33,554 nucleotides of DNA, taken from NCBI GenBank assembly GCA_902796205.1, contig CADBOE010000115.1, forward strand, positions 1 through 33,554, in the 5' to 3' direction. This stretch comes from an uncultured Ruminococcus sp. GTDB taxonomy: Bacteria > Bacillota > Clostridia > UBA1212 > UBA1255. Below the pieces are notes generated by a model. That model was not told the DNA's origin. It saw nothing but the letters and a program-made list of their open reading frames with translations, and did not search any database. Positions 7,318 to 33,019 of the stretch are shown here, piece by piece. Numbering within the stretch: position 1 is the stretch's first letter; every line of letters begins with the position of its first letter. Made by a program: the position numbers and the translations under genes.

Positions 7318-7702
7318 TGCAACGGGGGACAGACCCCGGTTTTGACCCTGCCCCTGTGAGGATGCAACGGGGGACAGACCCCGGTTTTGACCCTGCCCCC
7401 GGGAGGATGCAACGGGGGACAGACCCCGGTTTTGACCCTGCCCCCGGGAAGGTGCAACGGGGGACAGACCCGGGTTTTGACCCTGTCCCCGGGAGGATGC
7501 AACGGGGGATAGACCCGGGTTTTGACCCTGTCCCCGGGAAGGTGCAACGGGGGACAGACCCGGGTTTTGACCCTGTCCCCGGGAGGACGCAACGGGGGAC
7601 AGACCCCGGTTTTGACCCTGTCCCCGGGAAGGTGCAACGGGGGACAGACCCGGGTTTTGACCCTGCCCCCGAGAGGATGCAACGGGGGACAGACCCGGGT
7701 TG
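7318..7702 (+). repeat. tandem array of 45-bp hairpin (REP-like) units, 8.5 copies
   Basis: Unit TGCAACGGGGGACAGACCCSGGTTTTGACCCTGYCCCCGGGARGR starting at 7318, 7363, 7408, 7453, 7498, 7543, 7588, 7633, partial at 7678; internal inverted repeat GGGGACAG/CTGTCCCC. Confidence 0.97.
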
Positions 7703-7726
7703 CCGGGGTTGTTTCGGCCGTGTTTT

Positions 7727-7754
7727 TTGACAAATGCCGGCGGATGTGTATAAT
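7727..7754 (+). promoter_or_regulatory. consensus sigma-A promoter
   Basis: TTGACA (7727-7732), 16 bp spacer, TATAAT (7749-7754); AAAGGAGG RBS at 7768-7775. Confidence 0.8.
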
Positions 7755-7785
7755 AAAATTCACCGCAAAAGGAGGCGCATGGAAA

Positions 7786-8088
7786 ATGCAGGCGACAGTC
7801 ACAAAAGACGGCGAAACAATTAAAGCCGCGATCTGCGGAAGGCTCGATACCGTAACAAGCGCGGAACTGAACGAGCAGTTGAAAAGCGCGGGGATCGACA
7901 ATTGCGATATTGACCTCGATTTTGTCGGGGTGGAGTATATTTAATCGGCCGGACTGCGTTTGCTCGTAGCGCTCCGCAAACAGGCAGACACGACGGGAAA
8001 CAGTATGACGGTCAGAAGAAATATCAACAGAGTTGTCCGCGAGGTGTTCCGCGTGGCAGGATTTGAAAAAGTATTCACGGTCGTTTAA
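7786..8088 (+). pseudogene. STAS-domain anti-sigma factor antagonist with internal stop
   Basis: MQATVTK..GRLDT..LDFVGVEYI*SAGLRLLV..VREVFRVAGFEKVFTVV*; TAA at 7942-7944 interrupts the YISSAGLR motif and the frame continues in register. Confidence 0.88.
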
Positions 8089-8166
8089 GATCCGAAATAG
8101 ACCTTAACGGTCGGTTAAACCTGAACCGCTCCCGCGCACGCGCACGCGCGCCGGAATGGAGCTGAA

Positions 8167-8418
8167 ATGAAAGCGACAAAATTCACCATTGGCCGAAAAC
8201 TGTTTCTCCTTTCATTGATACCGATCGCGGTGATGATCGCCGCGGCGCTCGTTGTGTCGTCGATGCTTTTCGACCGCAAGATCCGCCAGGACGCCCGCAA
8301 AGTGACGACGCAGGCCGCAGACAACACCGCCGCCGGACTCAACGTACTTTCGTTCCTGAAATATACCGACCGGTCCGTATCAGGCAGCCGCGACGCCGGC
8401 GGGACCGCGGAGGATTAA
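8167..8418 (+). pseudogene. probable N-terminal remnant of a membrane-bound sensor/signalling protein
   Basis: GGAG RBS; TIGRKLFLLSLIPIAVMIAAALVVSSMLF resembles the first TM of MCP/kinase/PP2C sensors; ORF ends after 83 aa. Confidence 0.5.
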
Positions 8419-8421
8419 CGC

Positions 8422-10551
8422 ATGTCCGTCAGCGTTACGTTTCTGAAAGGCGTAAAAGGAAAGCGCCGGCAGCAGTTGAATGAACTCGGCGTCGAGACCG
8501 TCGACGATCTCGTGCGCCTCATGCCGCGGTATTACGAGGACAGGTCCGGTATCAGGAGCTGCTCGGAGCTTTCGGACGGTGCGGGCGCGACCGTGAAGGT
8601 CCGGATAATGCGTATATCGTTCAGGCAGATAAACAGGAGCAGGTCGGTGCTGAATCTCCTGTGCGAGGACGACACGGGCCGGATCGGCATATCGTTTTTC
8701 AATCAGAGATATATACGCGACAGATTTGAAAAGGGGCAGGAGGCTCTCTTCTTCGGAAAAGTTGTCCGCGGCTACAGGGGCGGCCTGGAAATGGTGAATC
8801 CGGAATTCGTGCTGCCGGAGGACGGCGTCATGCTGACCGACGGGGAAATAAAAGGCTTCAGCGGCGTTTATCCGGTTTATCCGCTTACAAAAGGGCTTTC
8901 CCAGAAAATGCTGCGGAAATTCATCGGCGAGGCGCTTTCGCTCGTGCCCGAATTTGCCGATCCGCTTCCCGAAAGCATAAAAAAAGAATATTCACTTATC
9001 CGGCTGAACGACGCGATCAGGCGGGTCCACAGGCCGGAAACGGTCGGCGACGCGGAAGAAGCGCGGCGGAGGCTCGCTTTTGACGAGCTTCTCGGGACAA
9101 GGCTCATGCTGCTGCTGATGAAGCAAAGCTATGCCGGCGGGGCCGGAGGCAACCGATTCAACGACGAACCGCTCACGCCCGCTCTCAGAAAGCTGCTCCC
9201 GTTCGAACTGACCGATTCGCAGGAGGCCGTCTGGCGCGATATTCAGGCGGATATGGCCGTAAACAGGCCGATGAACCGTCTGGTTATGGGCGACGTCGGC
9301 TCCGGCAAAACGGTTCTTGCCATGCTCGCCATTCTCCGCGCCGCCGGAAACGGTTTTCAGTCCGCGTACATGGCTCCGACCGAGGTCCTCGCCGAGCAGC
9401 ATTACGCCAATATCGCGCCAGTGTTCGGGAAGCTCGGCGTTTCCTGCGCGCTCCTCACGGGCGCCGTGACCGGGAAAAACAGGGCCGAGATCCTGGAGCG
9501 TATCGCCGACGGAACGCTGTTGTGCGTCATCGGCACGCACGCGCTCATTCAGCGCGGCGTCAGCTGGAACCGCCTCGGCCTCGCCGTTACCGACGAGCAG
9601 CACCGGTTCGGCGTGCGTCAGCGGGGGATGTTTTTTGAAAAATCAAAGGGCTCCGCGGTTCCCGACATACTTGTAATGACCGCGACTCCCATACCGCGCA
9701 CGCTCGGCATGATCCTTTACGGGGACATGGATATCTCGCGGGTGGAGACGCTTCCGACGGGAAGGAAGCCGATACAGACCTACCTTGACGACGGACGCCG
9801 GCGGGAGAGGATTTACCGCTGGGCCGCGGAGCTTGCCCGACAGGGAAGGCAGATCTATATCGTTCACGCCGCCATCGGAGACGAAAAGGGAGCGGACGGG
9901 GCTGACGGAGAGGAAGCGGAGGAAGACGCGGGGGTCACGACGGACGTTCTCTCCGCGACGGACAATTTTGCCGAAGCGTCGGGTACGTATTTTTCCGGGT
10001 TGACAACGGCGCTTCTGCACGGCCGCCTTCCCGACAGGGAAAAGAACGATATCATGCGCCGTTTTGCCGGAGGCGAAATCAGCGTGCTCTTTTCGACGAC
10101 CGTTATAGAGGTCGGCGTCGACGTGGCCAACGCGTGCCTGATGATCATAGAAAATTCCGAGCGTTTCGGCCTTTCGCAGCTTCACCAGCTGAGAGGCCGC
10201 GTAGGGCGCGGGAGCGAGCAATCATATTGCGTACTCCTGACGACGCATCATATAAACCCGGATCCGCCCGACGACGATCTTGTTTCCCGCCGTCTGCTGA
10301 CGCTGAGGGACTGCCTGAGCGGCGAAAAAATCGCCGAAGAGGATCTCAGGCTCCGCGGTCCGGGAGACTTTTTCGGCGTAAGCCAGCACGGCCTTCCGGC
10401 TTTTCATGCCGCGAATCTCTATACAGACGGAAAATTGCTGGAAATAACGGAAAATATTGCCGCCCGCATCGCCTCGGCGCCGGAAAACAGCGAATATTCG
10501 GAATATATCGACCACGTGCGAAAGCGTATGCCGGAGGCCGCCGTGCTCTGA
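8422..10551 (+). CDS. recG: ATP-dependent DNA helicase RecG
   Basis: Wedge-domain N-terminus, ARRRLAFDEL, GDVGSGKT, MAPTEVLAEQH, DEQHRFG, MTATPIPR, QLRGRVGRG, DLRLRGPGDFFG. Confidence 0.96.
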   Translation: MSVSVTFLKGVKGKRRQQLNELGVETVDDLVRLMPRYYEDRSGIRSCSELSDGAGATVKVRIMRISFRQINRSRSVLNLLCEDDTGRIGISFFNQRYIRDRFEKGQEALFFGKVVRGYRGGLEMVNPEFVLPEDGVMLTDGEIKGFSGVYPVYPLTKGLSQKMLRKFIGEALSLVPEFADPLPESIKKEYSLIRLNDAIRRVHRPETVGDAEEARRRLAFDELLGTRLMLLLMKQSYAGGAGGNRFNDEPLTPALRKLLPFELTDSQEAVWRDIQADMAVNRPMNRLVMGDVGSGKTVLAMLAILRAAGNGFQSAYMAPTEVLAEQHYANIAPVFGKLGVSCALLTGAVTGKNRAEILERIADGTLLCVIGTHALIQRGVSWNRLGLAVTDEQHRFGVRQRGMFFEKSKGSAVPDILVMTATPIPRTLGMILYGDMDISRVETLPTGRKPIQTYLDDGRRRERIYRWAAELARQGRQIYIVHAAIGDEKGADGADGEEAEEDAGVTTDVLSATDNFAEASGTYFSGLTTALLHGRLPDREKNDIMRRFAGGEISVLFSTTVIEVGVDVANACLMIIENSERFGLSQLHQLRGRVGRGSEQSYCVLLTTHHINPDPPDDDLVSRRLLTLRDCLSGEKIAEEDLRLRGPGDFFGVSQHGLPAFHAANLYTDGKLLEITENIAARIASAPENSEYSEYIDHVRKRMPEAAVL

Positions 10552-10616
10552 TCAGCCTGCGGGGGATCACATGCCGGACGTCGCCGTAAGCCGTACCTCC
10601 GTACCACATACCCTGT

Positions 10617-11582
10617 TCATCCCGCGCCGAAAGCGGAATCGAGAGCTTTGTTCAGGCGGTTCAGAACGCCTTTTTTGTCCGTGCACCACGCGGGGGCGAT
10701 GAGCAGCTTCCGGGGAGGATCGCCGGTGAAGCGGTGTATGACGATCTCCGGAGGCAGCAGCCGTACGGCGGAAACGATCAGCTCCCTGTATTCTTCTTCG
10801 GTCAGCGCGGGAAACGCTCCGGCGAGATACAGACCGGCGAGATCGGTCCCTTTCAGCACGTGCAGAAGCTGGAATTTCACGCCGCAGACTCCCGAGCGGG
10901 CAACGTATTTTACGGATTCGAGCATCATTTCCCTGCTTTCGGGCACGAGGCGATCTCCTTCCGCGGGATACGGAAGCCCGAATATCAGATGCGTGACGAC
11001 CCTCGCGCCTGCTTTTTTCAGATCGCTGACGGCTCTGTCGTACGTTTCGAGCGGATAGCCGCGGCGAATGAAGGCGGCCGTCTTTTCATGTATCGTCTGC
11101 AGCCCGAGTTCTACGAAAAGGACCGTTTTTTTCGCGAGTCTTTCGAGCATTTCGATTATCTCCGGCGGCAGGCAGTCGGGACGGGTGGCGATCGAGAGCG
11201 CCTTCACCGACGGGTCGGAAAGAGCCGCGTTGAAAAGAGGCTCCAGCCGTTCCGCGGGGCCGTACGTATTTGTGAAATTCTGAAAATATGCTATAAAGCC
11301 GGCTTTGCCGACGTCGATCTTGCGCCCGAGCCGCTGCTTTGCCCTGTCCAGTTCCTCCTGCCTGCCCGTAAAGCGTTCCGCGAAGTCGCCTCCGCCCGCG
11401 GAAGAGCAGAAAATACAGCCACGGCTCCCGGCGCGCCCGTCCCTGTTAGGGCAGGTGCATCCGATATCGAGGGCGAGCTTGTAGATCTTCCGCCCGAATT
11501 CGGCGCGGAGACTTTCTCCGGCGGTCAGAGGGCGCGTGCCGTATGAACGTTCTGTGAAAGCACTATTATCCGTTGTATTCAC
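10617..11582 (-). CDS. TIGR01212/YhcC-like radical SAM protein
   Basis: TCPNRDG..GCIFC, YFQNFTNTY, IATRPDCL, VELGLQT; start uncertain (GTG 11582 overlapping the upstream stop, or the ORF-track start at 11603). Confidence 0.88.
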   Translation of the reverse strand: MNTTDNSAFTERSYGTRPLTAGESLRAEFGRKIYKLALDIGCTCPNRDGRAGSRGCIFCSSAGGGDFAERFTGRQEELDRAKQRLGRKIDVGKAGFIAYFQNFTNTYGPAERLEPLFNAALSDPSVKALSIATRPDCLPPEIIEMLERLAKKTVLFVELGLQTIHEKTAAFIRRGYPLETYDRAVSDLKKAGARVVTHLIFGLPYPAEGDRLVPESREMMLESVKYVARSGVCGVKFQLLHVLKGTDLAGLYLAGAFPALTEEEYRELIVSAVRLLPPEIVIHRFTGDPPRKLLIAPAWCTDKKGVLNRLNKALDSAFGAG

Positions 11583-12061
11583 TTTTTTCTGTTTACAAGA
11601 CAAAAAACGGCTGCCGCAGCGGCCGTGCCCGCGGCGAATCCGGCGAAGTCGATCACAACGTCGATGACTTCAGGGGAACGGCCGGGCGAAAAATATTGCA
11701 GCGTTTCGTCGGCAATTGCGGAGAGGAGCCCGAACGAGGTCAGCCAGCCGAAAGCCGGGAACGCGGCGGACGGCAGTTTTCCGCCTTTCATCTTCACGCG
11801 CAGCAGCACCGTCAGCGAAGACAGGACTCCGAGCAGGAGAAATTCGACGAAATGCGCGGCTTTTCTGACGAGATGATCCGTTATGCCCGGAAAAATATCC
11901 CGGAGCAGGGAAAGAAGCCGGCCGCTGTCGTCGGAAGAATCGGCGGCGGTTTTCAGCGAATTCGAGAAAAGGAAGAAAAGCCAGATAACGGTCAGGCAGA
12001 GCAGAATGATATTGACCGCGGTCCCGCGCCGGTACGTCCGGCTTTTCTCCCTCTGAAGCAT
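11579..12061 (-). CDS. VanZ-like family membrane protein
   Basis: VRKAAHFVEFLLLG, ADETLQYFSPGRS and DVVID motifs; several TM segments. Confidence 0.85.
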   Translation of the reverse strand: MLQREKSRTYRRGTAVNIILLCLTVIWLFFLFSNSLKTAADSSDDSGRLLSLLRDIFPGITDHLVRKAAHFVEFLLLGVLSSLTVLLRVKMKGGKLPSAAFPAFGWLTSFGLLSAIADETLQYFSPGRSPEVIDVVIDFAGFAAGTAAAAAVFCLVNRKK

Positions 12062-13788
12062 CAGCGAATTACCGTTATCTCTGCGGGAGCTTCGATCCTG
12101 GATACGATCTCGCCCTTCGTGTTGTATTTGTGAATAACGTGTATCGTGCCGTAAGGCGTCGGATAAGTGCCTTCCGCGAAGCGGAGATCCCCGAGCCTCG
12201 GAGCGATGCGGACGGTCTTGCAGCCGGGCTCAACGGGCGTGATTCCGAGCACGTATTTCGAGAGGAACGCGGCGGGGCCGGACGCCCAGCCGTGGCACAG
12301 GCTGTGGCGGAAGCCGACGTAGCAGTACGCGCCGTAATCGCCGTGAAGGTCTTTTACTCCCTCGGGGACGAGCTCGTCGATCCTGCCGGAGCCCTCGAGC
12401 CATTCGAGATTGAAGTCCTCCCAGAACGTTGTCGCTCCGCGGTCGAGCATCGCTCCCCAGAAATCGCGTATCATATCGAGGGCGGCGCCGGTCTCGTCCA
12501 GCTCGGCGAGAGCCTGAAGAACGTAGAAGCCGAAGAAAGTGGAAATGCGGTAGGCGCCGTCTTTTTTTATGACGTTGTCAGCCAGTGCGCGGGCCGCGGA
12601 GCCGTCCGCGATACCGGCGAGGATGAGCATTGCCGCCGCCTGCTTGTTGCCGTTCGGGTCGGGCATATGAGAGCGGAGCTTTTCCGAGGCCTCGCGGCAC
12701 ATTGCCGCCGCTTCGGCTTCGCCGAGCTCGTCGCACAGGAACGCTCCGGCGTCGAAGCACATTTTCAGCATACCCTGATAACCTGCGTGGATGGCGGCGG
12801 GATCGTTGTCGCTGGGCCAGTCGAGAAGGCGTCGGCCGGGGAGCTTTTCGCTGCCGTCGTTACCGACGTAATCGCGGAAAAATCCGAGAAGCTTTACGAG
12901 GTATTCGCGCTGCTCCGCCAAGTATTCCTTGTTTCCGTTCTGCATGTACCAGCCGTAATGGACGAGCACCCACCATACGGAATAGCCGGATATCCCGCAC
13001 ATCATGAGCGGAAGCGGAGATTCGTCGCGCGCCAGGTCGAGGCTCTTTTCGACGCTCGGATCGTGACCGAAAACGGCCTGGATGGTGGAGGTTTCGGGGT
13101 GAATGTCGCCGATCCACACGAGCCGGTCGCGCTTTATGCCGTCCCAGACGTATTCCTGCATGTTGAGGTGAACGGTGTACGCGGCGGTGTTCCAGATGCG
13201 GTCGAGCCTTGCGTCGTTTGAGTGGAACGAGCCCTTGTATTCGAGCTCGCGATATACGAATATGCCGTCGACGGCCATTATCCTGATCGAGGCACCCGGG
13301 TCGAGAAGGTCGATCCTGGCGAACCTGAATCCGGAAGGCCCGAGCTCAGGCATGCTGTAGTGGCCGACGTCGATAATCTGGTCGCGGTTAATGTGATCGT
13401 TCGTGGCGTTCTGCTTTCCGCCAAGCTCGGACATCGCCTCCTGGGCGGATTCGCCGAAGCGGACCCTCAGCTTCACGCGGGAGGGATTCGGGCTGTGAAT
13501 GAATATTTTCAGATTTCCGTGAAATTCCACGCCGTAATCGATGAGGATCGCCGCGGGCGAAAAACCGTCGCCTTCGGGACCGTTGGCCATTGTCATCATT
13601 TTCTGTATATTGAAGTGGATCTGTTCGGGATGAGGCTCGAGCAGGCATTCCTCTCCGGTGACGCCGGGCGTTTTCCAGAGAATACGCTTCGGCAGCATGA
13701 AGCGGCGAACGCGCGGATCGGGCTCGGTTCTGCAGAGCGTTTCGGGCGCACGGATCCCGGCGGGAACGAAGTTGGGATTCTGGTTCAT
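12061..13788 (-). CDS. alpha-L-rhamnosidase-like protein (GH78, short form)
   Basis: DGIKRDRLVWIGD, GATTFWE, SLCHGW, PTPYGTI; GGAGG RBS. Confidence 0.85.
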   Translation of the reverse strand: MNQNPNFVPAGIRAPETLCRTEPDPRVRRFMLPKRILWKTPGVTGEECLLEPHPEQIHFNIQKMMTMANGPEGDGFSPAAILIDYGVEFHGNLKIFIHSPNPSRVKLRVRFGESAQEAMSELGGKQNATNDHINRDQIIDVGHYSMPELGPSGFRFARIDLLDPGASIRIMAVDGIFVYRELEYKGSFHSNDARLDRIWNTAAYTVHLNMQEYVWDGIKRDRLVWIGDIHPETSTIQAVFGHDPSVEKSLDLARDESPLPLMMCGISGYSVWWVLVHYGWYMQNGNKEYLAEQREYLVKLLGFFRDYVGNDGSEKLPGRRLLDWPSDNDPAAIHAGYQGMLKMCFDAGAFLCDELGEAEAAAMCREASEKLRSHMPDPNGNKQAAAMLILAGIADGSAARALADNVIKKDGAYRISTFFGFYVLQALAELDETGAALDMIRDFWGAMLDRGATTFWEDFNLEWLEGSGRIDELVPEGVKDLHGDYGAYCYVGFRHSLCHGWASGPAAFLSKYVLGITPVEPGCKTVRIAPRLGDLRFAEGTYPTPYGTIHVIHKYNTKGEIVSRIEAPAEITVIR

Positions 13789-13822
13789 GTTGACCTCCTG
13801 GATATTAGGATTTGATGGGCCA

Positions 13823-13852
13823 ATGCTAACACTTTTGCGCGGTCGTTGTCAA
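13823..13852 (-). promoter_or_regulatory. sigma-A promoter of the GH78-vanZ-radical SAM operon
   Basis: Minus strand TTGACA, 18 bp spacer, TG-n-TAGCAT. Confidence 0.65.
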
Positions 13853-13870
13853 CGGATTTGTGCCCGTTCC

Positions 13871-14139
13871 GGGGCTGTCCCCCGTTGCATCTTTGCCAGG
13901 GACAGAAGGCGAAACGAGGGTCTGTCCCCCGTTGCATCTTTGCCGGGGACAGTGGTGAAACGAGGGTCTGTCCCCCGTTGCATCTTTGCCGGGGACAGAG
14001 GGCGAAACGAGGGTCTGTCCCCCGTTGCATTTTTGCCGGGGACAGAAGGTGAAACGAGGGTCTGTCCCCCGTTGCATTTTTGCCGGGGACAGAGGGCGAA
14101 ACGAGGGTCTGTCCCCCGTTGCATGTCCCCGGGTGCACC
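13871..14139 (-). repeat. tandem array of 47-bp hairpin (REP-like) units, about 5.4 copies plus head segment
   Basis: Plus-strand unit GGGTCTGTCCCCCGTTGCATYTTTGCCGGGGACAGARGGYGAAACGA at 13871, 13918 (46 bp), 13964, 14011, 14058, partial 14105; reverse-complement homologue of the 7.3 kb unit. Confidence 0.97.
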
Positions 14140-14179
14140 TCGTTGCCGCGTCGAGCTTCTCCGCATTTCAAATTAACAG

Positions 14180-14209
14180 TAGACACGGGGCGCCCGCGGT
14201 CGCTATAAT
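14180..14209 (+). promoter_or_regulatory. putative sigma-A promoter of the PHP gene
   Basis: TAGACA, 18 bp spacer, TATAAT (14204-14209). Confidence 0.6.
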
Positions 14210-14263
14210 GGCGGTACCGTAAATCAATATCCCGACGAGGGATCGGATCCGGGCAAATAATAG

Positions 14264-14363
14264 TTTTCCACAGCGAGACTGTTGAAAACCCGCGGGCGGT
14301 TGTGGAAAAACCTGCGGGAAATTCCGGGGAAAGTGTGGAAAATAAAAAGGAAAAGGTGGAAAA
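14264..14363. promoter_or_regulatory. DnaA-box-like cluster
   Basis: TTTTCCACA 14264-14272; TGTGGAAAA 14301-14309 and 14334-14342; one-mismatch copies at 14280-14288 and 14355-14363. Confidence 0.6.
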
Positions 14364-14364
14364 T

Positions 14365-15318
14365 ATGAGGAAATATCTGCTGCCGGCGGACGGGAAGCCG
14401 ATCAAGGCAAATCTCCATTGTCACAGTACGTATTCGGACGGGAAATATACCGTCGAACATCTGAAGAAAATTTATGAAGAAAAAGGTTACGGCGTGGTCG
14501 CTTTTTCGGATCACAACCGTCTTCTTCCGCACCCGGAGCTCAGGAGCGACGGGTTCGTCCCGCTCACCGCGACAGAGATCGACGTCAACGGGCCGGAGGA
14601 GCGCACGTATCATCTTAATTTCTTTTCGGCGGATCCGGACAGGACCGAATTCCCGGAGATAGACAGGATTTACGGCGTCGACGGAGTTAACGAAATAATC
14701 CGCAGAGGCAACGAGGCCGGCTTTCTCTGTCAGTACAACCACCCCCGCTGGTCGCTCCAGACGCCCGAGGACTTCACCGGACTGCGCGGACTCTGGGGTT
14801 TTGAAGTTTTCAACACCGGCTGCGAGGTGTCGATGTGCGACGGCTGGGGAGATTACGAATACGAAGTGATGTGCCGGGACGGGAAGGAACTGCCGGTCGC
14901 CGTTGCCACCGACGACAATCACAACTGGCCGGTAGAGCCGGGCGATGCGGGCGATCCCTACGACGACTCGTTCATGGGCTGGACGACGATAATTGCTCCC
15001 GAGCTGTCGTATTCCGCGGTCATTGACGCGATGAAAAAAGGCAACTGCTACGCGACCACGGGACCGGAAATAACCGGACTTTACGTCGAAAACGAGAAAC
15101 TTCACGTCGAATGTACGCCCGCGAAGGCAATATTCATACGTTTTGAGAGAAGACGTTCGGACTACAGGAGAAGCAACGGCCGCGACATCACCGGCGCCGA
15201 ATTCGACGTCAGCGGCGACTACCGGTTTTTCCGCCTTGAGATACACGACGGCGAGGGCAACAAGGCGATGACAAGGGCCTACAGCCGCGACGAGATATAC
15301 GGAAATGCCGACCGCTGA
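14365..15318 (+). CDS. PHP-domain metallohydrolase
   Basis: NLHCHSTYSDG, FSDHN, ATEI, YNHP, FEVFN, TDDNH; start placed at MRKYLL because the upstream extension is translated DnaA-box DNA. Confidence 0.85.
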   Translation: MRKYLLPADGKPIKANLHCHSTYSDGKYTVEHLKKIYEEKGYGVVAFSDHNRLLPHPELRSDGFVPLTATEIDVNGPEERTYHLNFFSADPDRTEFPEIDRIYGVDGVNEIIRRGNEAGFLCQYNHPRWSLQTPEDFTGLRGLWGFEVFNTGCEVSMCDGWGDYEYEVMCRDGKELPVAVATDDNHNWPVEPGDAGDPYDDSFMGWTTIIAPELSYSAVIDAMKKGNCYATTGPEITGLYVENEKLHVECTPAKAIFIRFERRRSDYRRSNGRDITGAEFDVSGDYRFFRLEIHDGEGNKAMTRAYSRDEIYGNADR

Positions 15319-15324
15319 GCACGG

Positions 15325-15374
15325 ATTATTTCCCGGGAAATAATTTGTCTTCCGAATGAAACTGCCTGTATCAT
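15325..15374 (+). promoter_or_regulatory. perfect 20-bp palindrome abutting a putative promoter
   Basis: ATTATTTCCCGGGAAATAAT (15325-15344), then TTGTCT, 18 bp spacer, TATCAT. Confidence 0.5.
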
Positions 15375-23129: not shown

Positions 23130-23145
23130 CTCCGCTGTTTAACGA

Positions 23146-25758
23146 TTATTTAAGCCAGACGCCGGAGCCGAGTATCTGCGGCTCCGCGTATTCCGGCACC
23201 TCGAGCACGGCCTGCGTATTCGCCGGGACCGTGACCGTATAGGAATAACCGGGTCCGTCCTTGCGTTTGTTATAAACGATTCCTATCCTGCCGAACGGCG
23301 AGTCGAATTCCGCCGCGAGGCGCGAGACGCCTTTCACGAACGAGGGCTTTATCCTGAAGCGCCTGAAGCCGGGAGCCAGCGGCTCGATGCCCGCGAGGCA
23401 GGTGGTCAGGCTGTATAGGAAGCCTCCGTGCATAGGATGGTTGTACGAAGCCACGGAAACGGGTCTTTTTTCGACAAAATGCATATCCGGCTCTTCCCAG
23501 ATGGTGGTCGCTCCCTCGTCCATCATCGTGCCGAAGCTCGGAGCGAAGCGGTTGAACAGATAAGTCACTGCGTCGTTACCGTATCCGGCTTTCATCAGAG
23601 CGGGAACGAGATATTTGTTGCCGTAAATACCCGTCGGCATCCTGTATCCGTCGTCGCGGATCATGCGGACCGTTTCTTCGAGAAGCGCCGCCCTGTCTCC
23701 GTCGGGGAAGATCCCGAGGAGGAGGGCCACTCCGTTCGAGCCCCAGTAACCGTAAGTATGCTTTCCGGCGTCGTAAAATTCCTTTATGAGCGCGGCTTTT
23801 ATCTCTTCCGCGAGGGCTCTGTATTTATCGCCGTCGCCGTAGCCGAACGCGTCGGATATCTCCGCCATGCGGGCGCAGATCTCGTAGTACATGAAGGTGG
23901 AGGAGTGGGCGACGGGCATGCGGCGGGGATTGTTGTTGCCGCCGGCGGGATCCCAGTCGCCGAGACCCTCGGATATTATGTGATCCGTTGCTCTCGCCGT
24001 CTCGTGATCGACCCATTTGCGCATAAGATCGATATTGTCCTCGATAACGGAGCGGTTTCCGGTATATTGCCACATATAATACGGAATGATTATCTGGGCG
24101 CAGCCCCAGAGCGGGCTGGCCTCGCCGCAGCCGCGTTTTCCGGGAGAGATCATCTGCCACGTGCCGTAAACCTCGGTCGTCGTGCGTATGTCGTCCATAT
24201 ATTTCTCGTATGACGAGGTCATGTCGTAGTTGAGCAGCGCCCAGTTGGAAACGACCTCCGCGTCGCCGAGCCAGCCGCATTTTTCTCTCGCCGGGCAGTC
24301 CTCGGGATAGCCGTGGTAGTTCGAGCGGAAAGTGTTATGCATGAGCTTCTGGAGGTCGTTGATGTCGTCGCACGACGAATCAAAATAGGACGTTTGGCGA
24401 AGATCTGTCGACAGCTGGAGTCCTTTGATCATATCCGCCTCCGGCATCGTGCCGTATCCTTTCGAGAAGTCGTGAATGCCGGTGATCTCCACGTACCTGA
24501 AGCCGTGATACGTAAACCGCGGCCTGTATATCTCGGGCTCCGGACCGCCGCGGGCGATATAGATATCCTGCTGTATGCACTGTGTGGCAAACGCGCCGGT
24601 CGATCTGTGGTCCAGCGCGCCTCCGGCGTTGAGCGCCTCCGACGTTCTGAAAACGTAAACGGCGCCACGGGGAGAATTCGCCGGGATCCGCACCTCGTAT
24701 ATTCCGGCAAAATTTTCGCCGAGATCAAATATCCACGCGCCGTCCGAAGCGCCGCTCGCGCATTTTACCGAAACGGCGGGAAGCTCGCGCATTATCCTTA
24801 CGGGCGGCATCAGGCAGCCCGTGAGCCTGCCTTTGGGCGTCGTATCCTCGACGACGCGCCCCCAGCCGTCGTCCGTGGCGTCCGGATCGCAGAAATCCGG
24901 AGTTTCGAGGCGGCAGTCGTACGTCTCGCCGGCGTAAATGTTGTTGACGGAGATGGGGCTGTATTTGTATTTCCAGTTTTCGGTGTCGGAAACGACGTTC
25001 TGAACGGAGCCGTCCGTGAACCGGATGCGGAGAAGGACTATCGCGCATACGTCGCCGTAAACGAATCCGGCGGAGCCCCATACGCGGCTCTGGGAATAAA
25101 ATCCTTCGCCGAGCCAGACCGCCAGCGCGTTTTTGCCGTGACGGACGAGTCCCGTGACGTCCGTTCCGCGGTAGAGTACCGTTTTTTCGTAGTTCGTCGC
25201 GGGCGGATCGATATAGTAATCGTCGGTACGGAGGCCGTTCAGATAGAATTCGCCGCAGCCGAGGCCGCACGCGTACAGCCTCGCGTCCGCGATCTCCTTT
25301 CCGGGCAGTTCGAAACGGACGCGCAGATAGGGCGCCCATCCGGGGATGTGCGTTTCGGGCTTGATCCATTTCGCGCCCGACCAGCCGCCGCTGCCGTCGC
25401 CGTTGCCGCTGCCGTCGCCGTTGCCGCTGCCGTCGCCGTTGCCGCCGTCGTCCGGGCCGGTCGAGAAGGCCGCCGTCGTCTGAGCGGTCTCGCCGTGGTT
25501 GTCGGTACACGTTACGGAGACCTCGTAATCGGTAAGGCTTCGGAGGACGAGGTCCTTCGCCTGTACGTCGACGCTGTTTCCGTCGTTGACCTCGCCGGTG
25601 TCGAAAATGACGTTTTTGCCGTCGGAAACCGTGAGCCTGCGGGAGATCTGGAAGGTGTCGGGTTTATCCGAATCCATTTTCCAGCTGAAGCGGAGACCCG
25701 CGAGCGGGGCCGTGAGTGTGGTTTTCGTGCCGTTTACGGTCAGATCGTATAATCTCAT
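23146..25758 (-). CDS. alpha-L-rhamnosidase (GH78, full length)
   Basis: DLGENFAG, PRFTYHGFRYVE, EDCPAREKCGWLGD, LGDW, GATTIWE, SYNHPMHG. Confidence 0.92.
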   Translation of the reverse strand: MRLYDLTVNGTKTTLTAPLAGLRFSWKMDSDKPDTFQISRRLTVSDGKNVIFDTGEVNDGNSVDVQAKDLVLRSLTDYEVSVTCTDNHGETAQTTAAFSTGPDDGGNGDGSGNGDGSGNGDGSGGWSGAKWIKPETHIPGWAPYLRVRFELPGKEIADARLYACGLGCGEFYLNGLRTDDYYIDPPATNYEKTVLYRGTDVTGLVRHGKNALAVWLGEGFYSQSRVWGSAGFVYGDVCAIVLLRIRFTDGSVQNVVSDTENWKYKYSPISVNNIYAGETYDCRLETPDFCDPDATDDGWGRVVEDTTPKGRLTGCLMPPVRIMRELPAVSVKCASGASDGAWIFDLGENFAGIYEVRIPANSPRGAVYVFRTSEALNAGGALDHRSTGAFATQCIQQDIYIARGGPEPEIYRPRFTYHGFRYVEITGIHDFSKGYGTMPEADMIKGLQLSTDLRQTSYFDSSCDDINDLQKLMHNTFRSNYHGYPEDCPAREKCGWLGDAEVVSNWALLNYDMTSSYEKYMDDIRTTTEVYGTWQMISPGKRGCGEASPLWGCAQIIIPYYMWQYTGNRSVIEDNIDLMRKWVDHETARATDHIISEGLGDWDPAGGNNNPRRMPVAHSSTFMYYEICARMAEISDAFGYGDGDKYRALAEEIKAALIKEFYDAGKHTYGYWGSNGVALLLGIFPDGDRAALLEETVRMIRDDGYRMPTGIYGNKYLVPALMKAGYGNDAVTYLFNRFAPSFGTMMDEGATTIWEEPDMHFVEKRPVSVASYNHPMHGGFLYSLTTCLAGIEPLAPGFRRFRIKPSFVKGVSRLAAEFDSPFGRIGIVYNKRKDGPGYSYTVTVPANTQAVLEVPEYAEPQILGSGVWLK
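25387..25440 (-). repeat. in-frame 18-bp tandem repeat, 3 perfect copies (GNGDGS)
   Basis: GCCGCTGCCGTCGCCGTT at 25387, 25405 and 25423. Confidence 0.95.
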
Positions 25759-25794
25759 TCCGGAACATCCTTTCTTGAGTTTGAATATTCTTGT

Positions 25795-26727: not shown

Positions 26728-26749
26728 TCCGAAAAACTCCCCTTCCTTG

Positions 26750-27547: not shown

Positions 27548-27580
27548 GCTTTCCCCTTTTTTTCAATACGTCTCCACCGG

Positions 27581-27653
27581 TTTTTAACAGGCACACAGGG
27601 GTTTTCCTCAGGGTTTTCCACAGTTTTTGGCGGGCGATCCGGGGTTTTCCACA
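27581..27653. promoter_or_regulatory. second DnaA-box-like cluster
   Basis: TTTTCCACA at 27614-27622 and 27645-27653; one-mismatch copies at 27602-27610 and 27581-27589. Confidence 0.5.
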
Positions 27654-27734
27654 GCGGATTTACGGATTGAGTTTTTAAGCGCCGCCGCTGCAAAGCCGTT
27701 CTCCGCAACCGCATCCCCGTCTGATACGGCGGCC

Positions 27735-28154
27735 TCAGCCGTTCCAGCGCGTCTCGCAATAAACGCAGCGGTAGATCTTCCGCTCCCTGTCCGTCAGCCG
27801 GAACAGCTGATCGAGCTCCTGCTCGCAGGACGTTATGCACCGCGGATTTTTGCACCGGATAACGTTTTTTAGCGTTTCGGGCATGTCGATCGTCCGTTTT
27901 TCGACGAGTTTTCCGTCCCTGATATAATTGACCGTCGCGCCGGGATCGGCGAAACCGATTATATCTATATTGACCGGTATGTCCGCGTCGATCTTTATGA
28001 TATCCTTCCGGCCGAGCTTCCGGCTCGCAACGTTCTTGATGAGCGCCACGGAGACGTCGATCGAATCGAGGCCGAGCAGATTGTAAAGGGTCATTCCGTG
28101 ACCCGCGGCGATATGGTCTATAACAAGTCCGTTCTGTATGGAATCAACGTTCAT
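27735..28154 (-). CDS. pyrI: aspartate carbamoyltransferase regulatory subunit
   Basis: IQNGLVIDHI, KDIIKI, CKNPRCIT and YRCVYCE zinc site. Confidence 0.95.
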   Translation of the reverse strand: MNVDSIQNGLVIDHIAAGHGMTLYNLLGLDSIDVSVALIKNVASRKLGRKDIIKIDADIPVNIDIIGFADPGATVNYIRDGKLVEKRTIDMPETLKNVIRCKNPRCITSCEQELDQLFRLTDRERKIYRCVYCETRWNG

Positions 28155-28172
28155 CGCAAAATCCTCCGAAGC

Positions 28173-29099
28173 TCATCTGATCGTGCCGGCGTCACGCAGA
28201 AGCATCAATATAAGCGCCATGCGCATGTATTTGCCGTTCAGTACCTGCTTGAAATAGCAGGCCCGCGGGTCGTCGTCGATGGAAACGCTTATCTCGTTGA
28301 CCCTCGGAAGCGGGTGAAGCACGCACATATCGGGTCCGGCGAGCTTCATCTTGTCCGGAGTCAGAACGTAGCTGTCCTTCAGGCGGAGATAATCCTCCTC
28401 GTTAAAGAAGCGTTCCTTCTGGACGCGCGTCATATACAGCAGGTCGAGCTCAGGAAGCGCCTCCTCGAGGCTGGCCGTCTGCGAGTAGGGAATGCCGTTC
28501 GGCTTCAGGACGTTGTCCTTCACGTAGCTCGGGAGCTTCAGCTCCTCGGGTGAGATCAGCACGAAACGGACGTCTTCGTAACGCGAGAGCGCGTTGATCA
28601 GCGAATGTACGGTGCGGCCGAATTTCAGATCGCCGCAAAGCCCGACGTTGAGACCGCCGAGGCGGCCCTTTTCCCTGCGGATCGTCAGCAGATCGGCAAG
28701 CGTCTGCGTCGGGTGGCAATGCCCTCCGTCGCCGGCGTTGATCACCGGGATGGAGGCGTTGTTCGCGGCAACGAGCGCGGCCCCTTCCTTCGGATGTCGC
28801 ATCGCGATGATATCGGCGTAGCAGCTGACGACTTTTGCCGTATCGGCGACGCTCTCCCCCTTGGAAGCTGACGACGTCCCGGCGCCGGTAACGGAAAGCA
28901 CGTTTCCGCCGAGCTCGTACATCGCCGCCTCGAAGCTGAGCCGCGTCCTCGTCGACGGCTCGAAAAACAGCGTCGCGAGCTTTTTGCCGCCGCATACGCC
29001 GTAATAATCGCCGGGATGCGCTATGACGTCCTGCGCCGTTTCTATGAGCGACCGTATCTCGTCCGTGCTGAGATCAAGAATATCTATGACGTGTCTCAT
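28173..29099 (-). CDS. pyrB: aspartate carbamoyltransferase catalytic subunit
   Basis: [38 protein letters not shown]. Confidence 0.97.
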
Positions 29100-29111
29100 T
29101 CTGCAGCCCTC

Positions 29112-30503
29112 TCACTTTTCTATCCAGCTCTCGTCGGAAGGATCGTCGCGGAAAGCGATCAGCCTTCTGACGTCCTCAGGCGCTATATATCCGCTTCCGG
29201 CGGCAACGGCGGCGACCGTGTCGAAATCGGTCAGCGAAACGTTCCGCACGTTCGCCTCGGCCAGGCGGTCAATTCCCTTTTTCATGCCGTACGTAAATAT
29301 CGACGCTATTCCGAGCACGACGGCGCCGGCCTCGCGGAGCACGTTCACGACCTCGATGACGCTTCCGCCGGTGGAAATGAGATCCTCGATAACGACGACC
29401 TTCTGTCCCGGTTCGAGGCGCCCCTCGATCTGGTTCTTGCGTCCGTGATCCTTCGATCCTGATCTGACGTAGCCCATCGGCAGCCCGAGCAGGTGTCCCG
29501 CGATGGCCGCGTGTGCGATCCCGGCGGTAGACGTTCCCATCAGCACTTCGGCGTCCGGATAATACTTTTTCACCGTCTGAGCGAGCCCCTGCTCCACGTG
29601 AAGCCGGACCTCCGGCGCGGTGAGCGTGAGGCGGTTGTCGCAATAAACGGGACTTTTTATGCCGCTCGCCCATATGAACGGCTCGTCAGGGCGGAAGAAA
29701 ACGGCTTTAATTCCGAGAAGATCCGAAGCGATCGTTTTGCTTGTCACCGGGTCGGCGCACGAAGAGACCGGCGCGGTATCACGCGCGTTGTCCGCGGGTG
29801 CGCTGACGCCGAATTCCGAGAGAGCCCGCGCGTAAGCCGCGGCGGGATCCGGGACTCCGGTTATCGGACGGCCCATCACTATGTAGTCGGAGCCGAGCCC
29901 GGCGGCCCCGGCCGGCGTGGTGACGCGCTTCTGGTCGCCGGCGGCGTTGTCGTCGAAACGGACGCCGGGTGTCACGGTCAGGAAGTCTTCTCCGCAGGCG
30001 GAATGGACGAGCGCCGCTTCGAGAGGGGAGCAGACGACTCCGTCGAGACCGGCGTCGCGGGCGTTTTTCGCGTATCGCATGACGACCTCGCTCATCGGTT
30101 CGCGGATGAGTATCTCGTTTTCAAGCGCGGTCTGGTCGGTGGACGTGAGCTGGGTGACCGCGAGAAGGATCGGGCGGGTGCCGTCGGGTCGCGTAAGACC
30201 TTTTACGGCGGCTTCCATCATTGCGCGCGTTCCGGCGGCGTGGAGGTTCACCATGTCCACGTCGAGCTTCGACAGAACGGCCATCGCTTTTCCGACGGTG
30301 TTCGGTATGTCGTGAAGCTTCAGATCGAGAAATATCCTGTAGCCGCGCGCTTTTATCTCGCGCACGACGTCGGGACCCTCGGCATAAAACAGCTCCATTC
30401 CGATCTTGAGGAAGGGGCGCGATGAACTGCCGAGCCTGTCAAGAAAAGCGAGTGTAGACGCCCTGTCGGGGAAATCGCACGCTATGATAACGTCTTTGCC
30501 CAT
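29112..30503 (-). CDS. pyrF-pyrE: fused orotidine-5'-phosphate decarboxylase / orotate phosphoribosyltransferase
   Basis: N-half IFLDLKLHDIPNT, VTPGVR, GRPI; C-half WASGIKSPVYCDNR, VVVIEDLISTGGS; one uninterrupted 463-aa frame. Confidence 0.95.
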   Translation of the reverse strand: MGKDVIIACDFPDRASTLAFLDRLGSSSRPFLKIGMELFYAEGPDVVREIKARGYRIFLDLKLHDIPNTVGKAMAVLSKLDVDMVNLHAAGTRAMMEAAVKGLTRPDGTRPILLAVTQLTSTDQTALENEILIREPMSEVVMRYAKNARDAGLDGVVCSPLEAALVHSACGEDFLTVTPGVRFDDNAAGDQKRVTTPAGAAGLGSDYIVMGRPITGVPDPAAAYARALSEFGVSAPADNARDTAPVSSCADPVTSKTIASDLLGIKAVFFRPDEPFIWASGIKSPVYCDNRLTLTAPEVRLHVEQGLAQTVKKYYPDAEVLMGTSTAGIAHAAIAGHLLGLPMGYVRSGSKDHGRKNQIEGRLEPGQKVVVIEDLISTGGSVIEVVNVLREAGAVVLGIASIFTYGMKKGIDRLAEANVRNVSLTDFDTVAAVAAGSGYIAPEDVRRLIAFRDDPSDESWIEK

Positions 30504-30518
30504 ATTTATATGCTCCTT

Positions 30519-31448
30519 TCAGCTTAAAGCCGCTCCGATTATTTCATTTATATCTTTTACGCCGAGCCGCGACAATACCTCCGGCAGCTCACGCACGATC
30601 CTGAGGCTCGCGTACGGATCAACGAGATTCGCCGCTCCGATCTCCACGGCGGTCGCCCCGCACATCATCATTTCGATCACGTCCTCGGCCGATGAAACGC
30701 CGCCCATGCCCACGACGGGGATCTTTACCGCTTTTGCCGTCTGAAAGACCATGCGGAGAGCGACGGGGAAAATGGCCGGGCCGGAAAAGCCGCCGGTCGC
30801 GTTCGCTATGACGGGCTTGCGTTTCCTCAGGTCGACGCGCATCCCGAGCAGCGTGTTTATGAGGCTGATGCCGTCCGCGCCCGCGGCTTCGCACGCCTTC
30901 GCGATGACGGTTACGTCCGTCACGTTCGGCGAAAGCTTCGCTATCAGCGGTTTTTTCGTGACCCTCCGTACGGCGGAAACGACGGACGCCGCCGCGTCGG
31001 GATCGGTGCCGAAGCTCATGCCGCCCCCGTGAACGTTGGGGCAGCTTATATTTATCTCAAACCAGCCGATCTGCGGCTCCCCGTCGAGCTCGGCCGCCGT
31101 GAATACGTAATCGTCCGTCGAAAAGCCGCTGATATTGGCCATGACGGGCTTGCGGAAAACCTCGCGCAGCCGCGGCAGCTCGGTCTCCTTTACGGCACGC
31201 ACGCCGGGATTTTGCAGTCCCACCGCGTTTATCATGCCGGCGGTGCATTCGGCGATGCGCGGCGTCGGGTTTCCGAAGCGCGGCTCCCGCGTCGTTCCTT
31301 TGAAGGAAAACGTGCCGAGCTCGTTTATGTCGTACAGTCCGGCAAATTCATATCCGTAGCCGAAGGTTCCGGAGGCGGGGATAACGGGATTGTCGAGCGT
31401 TACGCCGCAAAGGACGACGGCCGTTTTAGGCGCGGTCAGTTTTTCCAT
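30519..31448 (-). CDS. pyrD: dihydroorotate dehydrogenase, family 1B catalytic subunit
   Basis: ASGTFG, NAVGLQNPG, EINISCPN, AKLSPN, INTLLG; GGAGG RBS before ATG 31448. Confidence 0.95.
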   Translation of the reverse strand: MEKLTAPKTAVVLCGVTLDNPVIPASGTFGYGYEFAGLYDINELGTFSFKGTTREPRFGNPTPRIAECTAGMINAVGLQNPGVRAVKETELPRLREVFRKPVMANISGFSTDDYVFTAAELDGEPQIGWFEINISCPNVHGGGMSFGTDPDAAASVVSAVRRVTKKPLIAKLSPNVTDVTVIAKACEAAGADGISLINTLLGMRVDLRKRKPVIANATGGFSGPAIFPVALRMVFQTAKAVKIPVVGMGGVSSAEDVIEMMMCGATAVEIGAANLVDPYASLRIVRELPEVLSRLGVKDINEIIGAALS

Positions 31449-32173
31449 ATTATCTCCTCCTTCCTGAGCACGGGGCCTTCCCTGCATATGCGCTTGCTTC
31501 CCGTGACCGTAAGGCAGCTGCAGCCCATGCACGCCCCGAAGCCGCAGCCCATGCGTTCCTCGAAGCTGAACTGGCCGGATGTGGCGGCGGCATTGAAAAC
31601 GGCCCTGAGCATGGGCTCGGGACCGCAGGTGTAAAAATATGAATAGCCGGAAGGCAGGTGGTCGGTAACGAAGCCTTTTTTTCCGGCGCTGCCGTCAACG
31701 GTCACGACGGTGACGCCGTTCCCGCAGAGACGTCGGAATTCATTTTCGCCGAACACGTCGCCGGCCGTGTTGAAGCCGAGGACGACGGACGGTTTCGCGC
31801 CGCGGGCAACGAGCTCGCGGCACAGCCAGTAGAGAGGCGGCACGCCGGCGCCTCCGCCGATGAGGAGGGGAGAGGGGCCGGAGGCGGACAGGTCATAGCC
31901 GTTGCCGAGACCTGTCAGGACGTCGAGCGCGGTTCCGGGGGCGAGGCGCGAGAGGGCCAGCGTGCCGGCGCCGACGGTTTTATATATTAAGGTGAGAGTT
32001 TTGTTTTCAAGGTTGCATACGGACAGGGGGCGCCTGAGATAGAAGCCTGAAAGGCGTATATTGACGAACTGGCCGGGCCTCTCCACCGCGGACGTGTCGC
32101 CGTTCAGTCTGATAAGATACACGTTGTCCGCGATCCGTCTGTTTTCGGTTATTTCGAAAAGCCCCTGTTTCAT
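31436..32173 (-). CDS. pyrK: dihydroorotate dehydrogenase electron transfer subunit
   Basis: PGQFV, LRRPLS, GGGAGVPP, TCGPEPM, EERMGCGFGACMGC..C [2Fe-2S] motif. Confidence 0.95.
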   Translation of the reverse strand: MKQGLFEITENRRIADNVYLIRLNGDTSAVERPGQFVNIRLSGFYLRRPLSVCNLENKTLTLIYKTVGAGTLALSRLAPGTALDVLTGLGNGYDLSASGPSPLLIGGGAGVPPLYWLCRELVARGAKPSVVLGFNTAGDVFGENEFRRLCGNGVTVVTVDGSAGKKGFVTDHLPSGYSYFYTCGPEPMLRAVFNAAATSGQFSFEERMGCGFGACMGCSCLTVTGSKRICREGPVLRKEEIIWKN

Positions 32174-32586
32174 CAGCTGTTTTCCTTTCCGCCGTTGCCT
32201 TCGCCGTTGTCTTCGCCGTTGTCTCCGCCGTCCGGCGAGAGCAGGTTTTTCCGCGTCTTTCCGGCGCGCCTCAGCAGTCTGAACGGGATGACCAGCAGCG
32301 CGACAATTCCGGCGACCGCGGCGAGCAGCACGAGCACGATCAGCGCCACGATCCAGGCGGGGAGAACTTCGTTGCCTTCGTTTTCGGAAAGCTGTGCTCC
32401 CCCGGTGGTTCCGGACGGCGCTTTTTCAGGCGCGGATAAAACGCTTTCGCCGGCATAGACCACCGCCGGATTTTTCTGCGCCGCTTCGGCTTTCATTTTC
32501 GGGGTCAACGCCGCGGCAGCGAGCAATATCGCCGCAATTACCGCCGCTGCTATGGCTGCGAATGCCGCCGGTGCTGTTTTTTTCAT
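32173..32586 (-). CDS. hypothetical small membrane protein at the head of the pyr operon
   Basis: MKK plus hydrophobic N-terminus, second TM, GAAAGGA RBS; TGATG overlap with pyrK. Confidence 0.65.
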   Translation of the reverse strand: MKKTAPAAFAAIAAAVIAAILLAAAALTPKMKAEAAQKNPAVVYAGESVLSAPEKAPSGTTGGAQLSENEGNEVLPAWIVALIVLVLLAAVAGIVALLVIPFRLLRRAGKTRKNLLSPDGGDNGEDNGEGNGGKENS

Positions 32587-32673
32587 CGCGCTTTTCCTTT
32601 CCGGCTCCGTTCAGTTTTCCGCCGTGCTCCGGCGTGTTCCTCAGCCGCCGCTCCGTTCGCAGCGGTCAACGCC

Positions 32674-32702
32674 ATTATATATTATCCGGGCTTCTGTTGC
32701 AA
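32674..32702 (-). promoter_or_regulatory. sigma-A promoter of the pyr operon
   Basis: Minus strand TTGCAA, 17 bp spacer, TATAAT. Confidence 0.7.
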
Positions 32703-32782
32703 TTATAAAACGCCTGATTTCCGGGCTGTTTCATAGCTGTTTCAAAGCAGCGAATTCCGGCCTGCCGCCGGATCGCGGCGAG

Positions 32783-32830
32783 GGTGCAACGGGGGACATG
32801 CAACGGGGGACAGACCCGGGTTGCGGGGTT
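32783..32830 (+). repeat. compact copy of the REP-like family
   Basis: GGTGCAACGGGGGACATGCAACGGGGGACAGACCCGGGTTGCGGGGTT. Confidence 0.9.
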
Positions 32831-32931
32831 CATCCTCGTTGATGCCGAAATGGCGAAAGTCGTTTATTTGCAAGGTTTTTTCGGTTTTATTTCCCGATAT
32901 TTCCTTAAATTTCCCGAAAATTCCCGGGCAC

Positions 32932-33019
32932 GGATGCGACTGCAACTGGTGGGGCAACGGGGGACAGGGATGCGACTGCAACTGCAACTGATGGGGCAAC
33001 GGGGGACAGACCCGGGTTT
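32932..33019 (+). repeat. two-unit variant array of the REP-like family
   Basis: GGATGCGACTGCAACTG.TGGGGCAACGGGGGACAG at 32932 (36 bp) and 32968 (42 bp, 6-bp duplication), then ACCCGGGTTT. Confidence 0.9.

Follow-up and report, generated by a model that had tools for sequence, protein, structure and literature searches.

A REP-like palindromic repeat family clustered upstream of promoters in an uncultured Ruminococcus species

Which kind of element occupies the long spacers between divergently transcribed genes in contig CADBOE010000115.1 of an uncultured Ruminococcus sp. (assembly GCA_902796205.1), and why is it located there? This contig, which we analysed over its full length of 33,554 nucleotides and refer to as the window (contig C115 of its own genome, G000), carries three clusters of a short repeat with the 14-nt core GCAACGGGGGACAG. 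A sequence-only reading of this DNA had counted about 19 copies and proposed a hairpin-forming, non-autonomous mobile element found only between divergent promoters. We conclude, with a probability of roughly three in four, that the repeat is a genus-specific family of the repetitive extragenic palindrome (REP) or REP doublet forming hairpin (REPIN) type, and that a Y1 HUH tyrosine transposase resembling the REP-associated tyrosine transposases (RAYTs) mobilises it or once did so. The enrichment of the family upstream of promoters and its polarity with respect to genes are genuine.

Repeat unit and genome-wide copy number

A search of the window with GCAACGGGGGACAG, in which up to two mismatches were allowed, revealed 20 matches; dinucleotide-shuffled sequences contained on average 0.39 and never more than 2. 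Nineteen of them are grouped in three clusters of 9, 6 and 4 copies, in agreement with the number reported earlier: nine at 7319-7692 on the plus strand (one with 1 mismatch), six at 13875-14122 on the minus strand and four at 32786-33009 on the plus strand (one with 1 mismatch). The remaining match (32185, 2 mismatches) lies inside an open reading frame (ORF) and was set aside as a chance occurrence. The complete core is a 25-nt imperfect palindrome, the 10-bp arms of which (GCAAC-S-GGGG and CCCC-S-GTTGC) enclose the 5-nt loop ACAGA. In the whole of G000 (2.06 Mb in 241 contigs, 55% G+C, 88.5% complete), a search which accepted the S variant and at most one mismatch identified 564 cores, among which 458 are exact; they are distributed over 161 loci that cover approximately 1.6% of the genome. 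Direct arrays account for 119 of these loci, 25 are of mixed orientation and 17 consist of a single core. The mixed loci follow the order + + + - - -, with their cores pointing inward.

Alignment of 507 genomic copies on the core showed that the conserved stretch extends over about 25 nt. In most of 558 copies, pairing is kept at positions 2-4 and 7-9, and mismatches are frequent at the middle S:S pair. The 5′ arm and the loop are nearly invariant in G000, in part an effect of the search, which used them as its definition; the 3′ arm has frequently degenerated to GGTTTY. G:T and A:C mismatches (198 versus 108) gave no decisive strand signal. The 3′ arm is followed by one or two unpaired T residues only; intrinsic terminators were rejected as a candidate, as no T run extends beyond these residues and a terminator scan scored none inside the three window arrays.

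The array unit is a family-wide element of 45-47 nt. Spacings from core to core of 45, 46 and 47 nt were counted in 79, 63 and 21 cases, respectively, and this set of periods rules out a coding repeat. The inverted half of the core, CTGTCCCC, is located at an offset of about 29 in 122 of 173 units; each unit is therefore composed of a full palindrome and a truncated inverted copy. Linkers are more alike within arrays (identity 0.89) than between arrays (0.57), a pattern characteristic of local tandem duplication. A clustered regularly interspaced short palindromic repeat (CRISPR) array was rejected on account of the 45-47 bp period, the 89% identity of the inter-core linkers and the lack of a cas domain among the 26 window proteins. 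Longer distances between cores, of 133 nt in 15 cases, 153/154 nt in 4 and 178/179 nt in 11, are due to a second building block. This conserved spacer module carries ATTTCC(C)G tracts with a phase of about 10 bp, together with a short inverted repeat, TCTAC...GTAGA; GTAG is present only within the 133-nt module, about 10 nt ahead of the next core. The third locus of the window contains one such module, and the ATTTCC(C)G motif was also found in the elements of G001, another genome of the genus.

Cores crowd the contig ends of G000: 75 of its 482 ends are no more than 400 nt away from one, and nearly all loci of mixed orientation (22 of 25) are located at contig ends. In practical terms, much of the fragmentation of the assembly is accounted for by the repeat family, which is one of its main causes.

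RAYT-like transposase genes and distribution among relatives

Of 40 relatives, G003 alone contains the exact 17-mer, in 43 copies; this genome represents another species of the genus. A 19-mer scan using one genome per species found it repeated in one Clostridia metagenome-assembled genome record, with two single matches elsewhere. Counts of a generic 12-mer amounted to 474 in G000, 139 in G003, 89 in both G001 and G002, 37 in G007, 15 in G004, 10 in G005 and 3 in G006, and did not exceed 2 in any of 33 genomes outside the genus.

The cores of G003 occur as inward-facing doublets 60-300 bp apart, which is the REPIN arrangement, and these doublets fold into long hairpins (z = -7.3 and -9.2). 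For single units of G000, the hairpin claimed by the sequence-only reading holds only weakly: DNA folds of four units or cores gave z-scores of -0.8 to -2.5. Inside doublets of G003 (contig C107, e.g. 1400-1590 and 9480-9570) we also observed runs of small hairpins split by ATTTCGC or ATTTAGC, a second repeat layer of which none was seen in G000.

Three Y1_Tnp genes were identified in G003. One of them, a 260-aa ORF (Pfam Y1_Tnp, E 2.5e-14), is flanked by the same cores, with one core 343 nt past its stop codon and a doublet about 130 nt ahead of its start. The check for a RAYT gene that the sequence-only reading had proposed thus succeeded, and a non-autonomous family of REP/REPIN character, linked to a Y1 HUH transposase of the RAYT type, is supported. 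Of the 8 genomes of the genus, 7 encode homologues, with 1-3 divergent paralogues per genome and 13 loci in total. In the fetched flanks of 10 of these 13 loci, AACSGGGGACAG-type cores were detected, the nearest copy being 117-810 nt away from the gene, and each paralogue pairs with its own core variant after ACAG. The HUH motif (NHVHLL) and the tyrosine motif (RYIHxNP) are nearly invariant in the alignment of the homologues. Their top NCBIfam model was 'REP-associated tyrosine transposase' (REP_Tyr_transpos) with 54-77 bits, as compared to 24 bits or less for IS200. A search of PDB with a single transposase sequence gave no match and a profile search was needed; the only match of the family profile was 4ER8, TnpA-REP of Escherichia coli (E 1e-5). 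In G000, tblastn with the G003 protein revealed a homologue truncated by the end of contig C26, of which the C-terminal 75 aa are present (44% identity, E 1e-14); a core doublet is located about 285 nt past the stop codon of this gene.

All RAYT-like proteins from the 13 loci share a C-terminal tail of about 110 aa which ends in a helix-turn-helix (HTH)-like motif, RGLSYxQI, with invariant Q and I. This tail is absent from the 165-aa chain of E. coli TnpA-REP matched in PDB.

The properties by which REPs and REPINs are recognised were largely found in this family. The 25-nt core is a short imperfect palindrome within the range of 20-40 bp, and 564 copies in 161 loci make the repeat high-copy and extragenic. 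Inverted doublets are present in G003 and represent a minority form in G000 (25 mixed loci of 161), and a Y1 HUH gene is flanked by the same repeats in G003 and at 10 of the 13 loci of the genus. The genomic context is that of classical REPs in G003 and differs from it in G000.

Position relative to genes and polarity

The three clusters coincide with the three complete divergent gaps of the window (7311|7786, 13788|14302 and 32586|33504, as defined by the ORF listing, Pfam and an ORF scorer), and none of the other gaps of the window contains a core, just as the sequence-only reading had stated. Its generalisation that the repeat is found only between divergent promoters did not survive the genome-wide count, in which 30 of 1080 co-directional and 4 of 127 convergent gaps were occupied in addition to 36 of 91 divergent ones; 26 called ORFs containing cores were discarded as doubtful. 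The enrichment in divergent gaps itself withstood a control for gap length. When the element length was subtracted and gaps with at least 150 bp left were kept, occupancy was 34 of 72 for divergent, 25 of 195 for co-directional and 3 of 49 for convergent gaps (divergent versus co-directional: odds ratio 6.1, p = 1e-8; divergent versus convergent: p = 6e-7). The copies are thus neither rare outside the window nor distributed in proportion to gap length, the two outcomes which had been named beforehand as fatal to the proposal.

Loci of G000 are faced by 157 gene starts and 57 gene ends (p = 5e-12). Those at contig ends show the same proportion of starts and ends, which indicates that the bias was not created by assembly breaks. 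A promoter match of at least 9/12 is located between array and start codon in 105 of 145 array-facing upstream regions. As arrays sit immediately upstream of sigma-70-like promoters, divergent gaps are favoured; their occupancy (34/72) is about twice the 24% expected from two independent promoter sides (p = 2e-5). Promoters adjacent to arrays (9.3 of 12) and those of array-free divergent gaps (9.1 of 12) did not differ in strength (p = 0.36). No fixed distance to the predicted -35 box was found, the median being 42 nt with a 10-90% range of 17-114.

Core direction was defined by the asymmetric loop, and uniform arrays in divergent and convergent gaps were left out of the polarity count because a 1:1 ratio is forced there. 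The core nearest to a gene start faces away from the gene in 73 cases and toward it in 18 (p = 5e-9), and no bias was found at gene ends (25:28). A replication-oriented motif was rejected, as core strand and regional GC skew showed no link (36/33/29/23 over the four combinations).

Array 1 of the window (7318-7702, plus strand) contains nine cores in 8.5 head-to-tail 45-bp units (Tandem Repeats Finder: 7318-7701, period 45, 8.5 copies, 92% matches), and the 25-nt palindrome is complete in its last core (7679-7703, plus strand). The cores point away from a gene encoding a 340-aa protein (6289-7311), the promoter-like site of which (7283-7311, minus strand; TTGACT-17-TAGAAT, 10/12, a consensus match only) lies 7 nt from the first core. 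On the opposite side, 25 nt past the end of the array, a perfect match is found (7727-7754, plus strand; TTGACA-16-TATAAT, 12/12). Array 2 (13871-14124, minus strand) has six cores on the minus strand in 5.4 units of 47 bp (Tandem Repeats Finder: period 47, 5.4 copies, 93% matches). It is located between the promoter-like sites of a rhamnosidase-like gene (13823-13852, minus strand; 10/12, 19 nt from the array) and of a PHP-domain gene (14180-14209, plus strand; 11/12, 56 nt from the array), and its cores point away from the latter. Locus 3 begins with a duplicated half-core of 14 nt and a complete palindromic core (32785-32824, plus strand), continues with an inner module between cores (32825-32953, plus strand) which carries phased ATTTCC(C)G motifs at about 32876-32930 and belongs to the 133/154/179-nt spacer class, and ends with two cores 42 nt apart (32954-33020, plus strand). 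Promoter-like sites are situated on its left (32674-32702, minus strand; 10/12) and right (33287-33316, plus strand; 9/12). All six -35 boxes named previously outside the arrays were thereby recovered as sigma-70-like matches of 9-12/12 facing away from the arrays, and they represent consensus matches only. Rfam gave no match at the gathering threshold on the window and none at E ≤1 on locus 3, and no tRNA was found by a tRNA search.

Directly downstream of the 12/12 promoter match, an ORF at 7786-8088 (plus strand) encodes a STAS domain of the anti-sigma antagonist type (Pfam STAS_2, E 8e-5, match on the second half) and has an in-frame TAA at 7942-7944 which interrupts it, owing perhaps to a sequencing error or to decay into a pseudogene. 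Short in-frame tandem repeats were observed at 25386-25452 (periods 6/12/18) in the rhamnosidase gene and at 32190-32231 (period 12) in a 137-aa ORF, and the core match at 32185 with two mismatches sits on the edge of the latter.

Contigs of four other DNA runs were aligned with positions 5001-15000 of the window. Those of run X1 (about 98% alike) extend from the flanks 18-57 nt into both arrays and then stop, and run X5 (labelled bovine gut metagenome) yielded near-identical short pieces. None of the pieces listed for this region spans an array or an empty site. As contigs of other runs match, the arrays are not peculiar to one assembly.

Orthologous sites were compared for the first two arrays. 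The genes flanking the array-2 gap are kept in G004 and G005, where the gap contains one core each in the same orientation, as compared to six in G000; these single cores are located a few bases upstream of the -35 box of the PHP-domain gene. This comparison is direct evidence of an old resident copy which was amplified locally. In the orthologous gap of G003 (contig C107, 5400-5550) we observed 3-4 tandem units of about 40 nt with unrelated sequence and no REP cores. For array 1, the comparison was limited to the upstream region of the left gene because synteny of the right flank is lost in relatives. Upstream of the orthologue of the 340-aa gene, G003 carries a three-unit head-to-tail array of a GGGGACAGACTT variant, G004 and G005 carry 3-4 copies each of a hairpin built on GGGACAAAAA or AAGACAAAC, and in G001, G002 and G007 the gap is short and free of arrays. 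Arrays are thus dispensable at this site, which was repeatedly colonised.

Origin of the family and comparison with known systems

From these results we propose that the RAYT-like transposase would move the palindromic elements and that the family probably grew in G000 to about 560 copies in about 160 loci mainly through local head-to-tail duplication of the 45-47 bp unit. The arrays may grow by slippage, unequal exchange or a nick-and-religate process. Their positional bias would then reflect where arrays can arise or persist and not a host function; regarding its cause, arrays which arise or persist only in untranscribed promoter-upstream spacers take roughly half of the odds.

Several observations weigh against this assignment. 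The two S positions do not covary, G:G being the commonest combination (240 of 558), single units fold weakly as stated above, and neither a GTAG nor a CGTC tag is found next to the palindrome, where the 5′ flank is weakly conserved with a T at -1 in 71% of copies. The NCBIfam scores of 54-77 bits fall under the curated cut-off of 80, Pfam Y1_Tnp has no match in G000, and the assembly of this genome, which is 88.5% complete, contains no full-length transposase gene. Genes were called by a crude home-made ORF scorer, and 97 of the 161 loci were left out of the gap typing as they touch contig ends. Array copy numbers could be wrong, given a fragmented assembly and contigs of other runs which break at the arrays. 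Simple tolerance does not predict the 73:18 polarity. In the sister species G003 the bias is absent: its loci are faced by 23 gene starts and 27 gene ends, which differs from G000 with p = 3e-4. Of the 34 loci in the G003 pieces analysed, 17 are co-directional, 5 convergent and 3 divergent, 6 are located in ORFs and 3 at contig edges; as these pieces were picked for holding elements, per-gap rates are inflated. Finally, the context in G000 is opposite to that of published REPs, which lie predominantly between unidirectional and convergent ORFs (PMC3733652).

Two other identities were considered for the repeats. They would be miniature inverted-repeat transposable elements (MITEs) of an ordinary insertion sequence if the core were a terminal inverted repeat and the link to Y1 genes coincidental. 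The inward-facing pairs of G003, 60-300 bp apart, do resemble MITE ends, but the core is itself palindromic as in REPs, 10 of 13 Y1 loci in the genus carry it with each its own variant, and the Y1 gene alone is enclosed by an inward pair of cores among the 34 loci inspected in the G003 pieces; other transposase families were not systematically searched, and we regard this origin as very unlikely. Even less credible is a role as RNA, be it a small RNA, a 5′ leader, a series of terminators or a CRISPR-like array. The units are able to form small hairpins, and published REPs are mostly transcribed (PMC3733652; PMC4550694). The promoter-like sites, however, face away from the arrays on both sides, Rfam lacks matches, the mismatch counts of 198 and 108 give no clear strand signal, spacers within arrays are 89% alike, unlike those of CRISPR, and the periods of 45, 46 and 47 exclude coding.

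Within the REP-type assignment, the location of the arrays could have causes other than persistence in untranscribed spacers. Negative supercoiling or single-strandedness produced by transcription upstream of active promoters, strongest between divergent ones, might drive insertion or tandem expansion, with palindromes extruding there and either being used by the single-strand-specific Y1 enzyme or undergoing slippage. In favour of this, single-stranded DNA is the known substrate of Y1 enzymes, divergent gaps are about twice as full as independent sides predict, the arrays lie upstream of promoter-like sites, and different palindromic families occupy one and the same divergent gap in four species. 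Such a mechanical cause is possible but the less favoured one: cruciform extrusion is non-polar while the arrays are polar, promoters next to arrays are no nearer to the consensus than those of array-free divergent gaps, and the bias is not found in the sister species, which has the same core and also a transposase. Alternatively, the host might have taken over the arrays as cis-acting promoter-upstream elements, either as a multi-site platform for a protein (a nucleoid protein or the transposase through its HTH tail, for example) or as a polar block to backward transcription which insulates neighbouring genes. The confinement of polarity to gene starts (73:18, compared to 25:28 at gene ends) points in this direction, as do the sequence of 5′ arm and loop, which is kept more than pairing, the conserved inner module with phased ATTTCC tracts common to another species, and the one core retained just upstream of the -35 box in two relatives. 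We nevertheless consider a host function unlikely, since the distance to the -35 box is not fixed, genes flanking the window arrays are functionally unrelated, copy number varies between 1 and 9, a scan of the window arrays for terminator-like sites was negative, orthologous gaps of G001, G002 and G007 lack arrays and the bias is missing in the sister species. A broader proposal covers both ideas and is doubtful, though somewhat less so than host function alone. It holds that the arrays are more than tolerated junk and form a polar DNA element coupled to promoters, which spreads or is retained in connection with the upstream side of active ones, via strand-specific Y1 chemistry on supercoiling-extruded hairpins or via domestication as a multi-copy protein platform which blocks backward transcription and insulates divergent promoters. 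If this were true, the family would now shape 40% of the divergent gaps of G000.

Most work on REP/REPIN-RAYT systems concerns Proteobacteria, whose repeats are located in transcribed DNA behind genes; their function is still debated. The two sister species described here provide a natural contrast, as they share the same core and transposase type: G003 has ordinary doublets behind and between genes, and G000 has hundreds of copies in polar head-to-tail arrays ahead of promoters. With this pair it becomes testable how REPs choose their location, whether supercoiling or transcription steers the spread brought about by Y1 enzymes, and whether promoter output is affected by arrays. In a literature search, which was not exhaustive, no REP family was reported as enriched upstream of promoters or in divergent gaps.

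Among other small repeats, MITEs such as Correia, RUP and BOX are non-coding and interspersed in intergenic DNA, and mycobacterial MIRUs are tandem units of 40-100 bp within operons. The family resembles both, being small, non-coding and intergenic like the former and tandemly organised like the latter; to our knowledge, none of Correia, RUP, BOX and MIRU is associated with a Y1 transposase or has a palindromic core of this kind. RIP/RIB-type bacterial interspersed mosaic elements (BIMEs) consist of two REPs around a conserved central IHF site. The inner module between cores, with its ATTTCC tracts phased at about 10 bp, likewise has the appearance of a protein-binding module, although it is only a putative binding site and the flanking cores in G000 are often direct and not inverted. 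Closer in architecture are the BIME-2 clusters of E. coli, in which REP325 consists of six tandem repeats with two palindromic units each (PMC4550694). Here, too, a tandem unit holds two palindromic parts and linkers. The BIME-2 clusters are located in transcribed 3′ regions, whereas the arrays of G000 (119 of 161 loci) face gene starts and are polar.

The closest relatives are the REP/REPIN-RAYT systems of Enterobacteria and Pseudomonas. They have in common with the present family a GC-rich short imperfect palindrome with hundreds of extragenic copies, inverted doublets with long hairpin folds (here in the sister species G003), and a low-copy Y1 HUH gene flanked by repeats, with variant-specific pairs of repeat and gene within the genus. 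In a survey of RAYTs (Bertels et al. 2017), highly abundant flanking 16-mers are tied only to groups 2 and 3, and the group reported from Clostridia has few (PMC5581495). Unlike the GTAG/CGTC-tagged REP superfamilies (Di Nocera 2013), the family does not carry the tag next to its palindrome. Its host is an uncultured member of the Clostridia, its transposase has an extra C-terminal HTH-like tail, its arrays outnumber doublets, and its elements are located upstream of promoters and not downstream of genes. The family thus differs from known REPs in the missing tag, the host lineage, the dominance of head-to-tail arrays, the promoter-upstream position and the polarity, and the last two of these are new.

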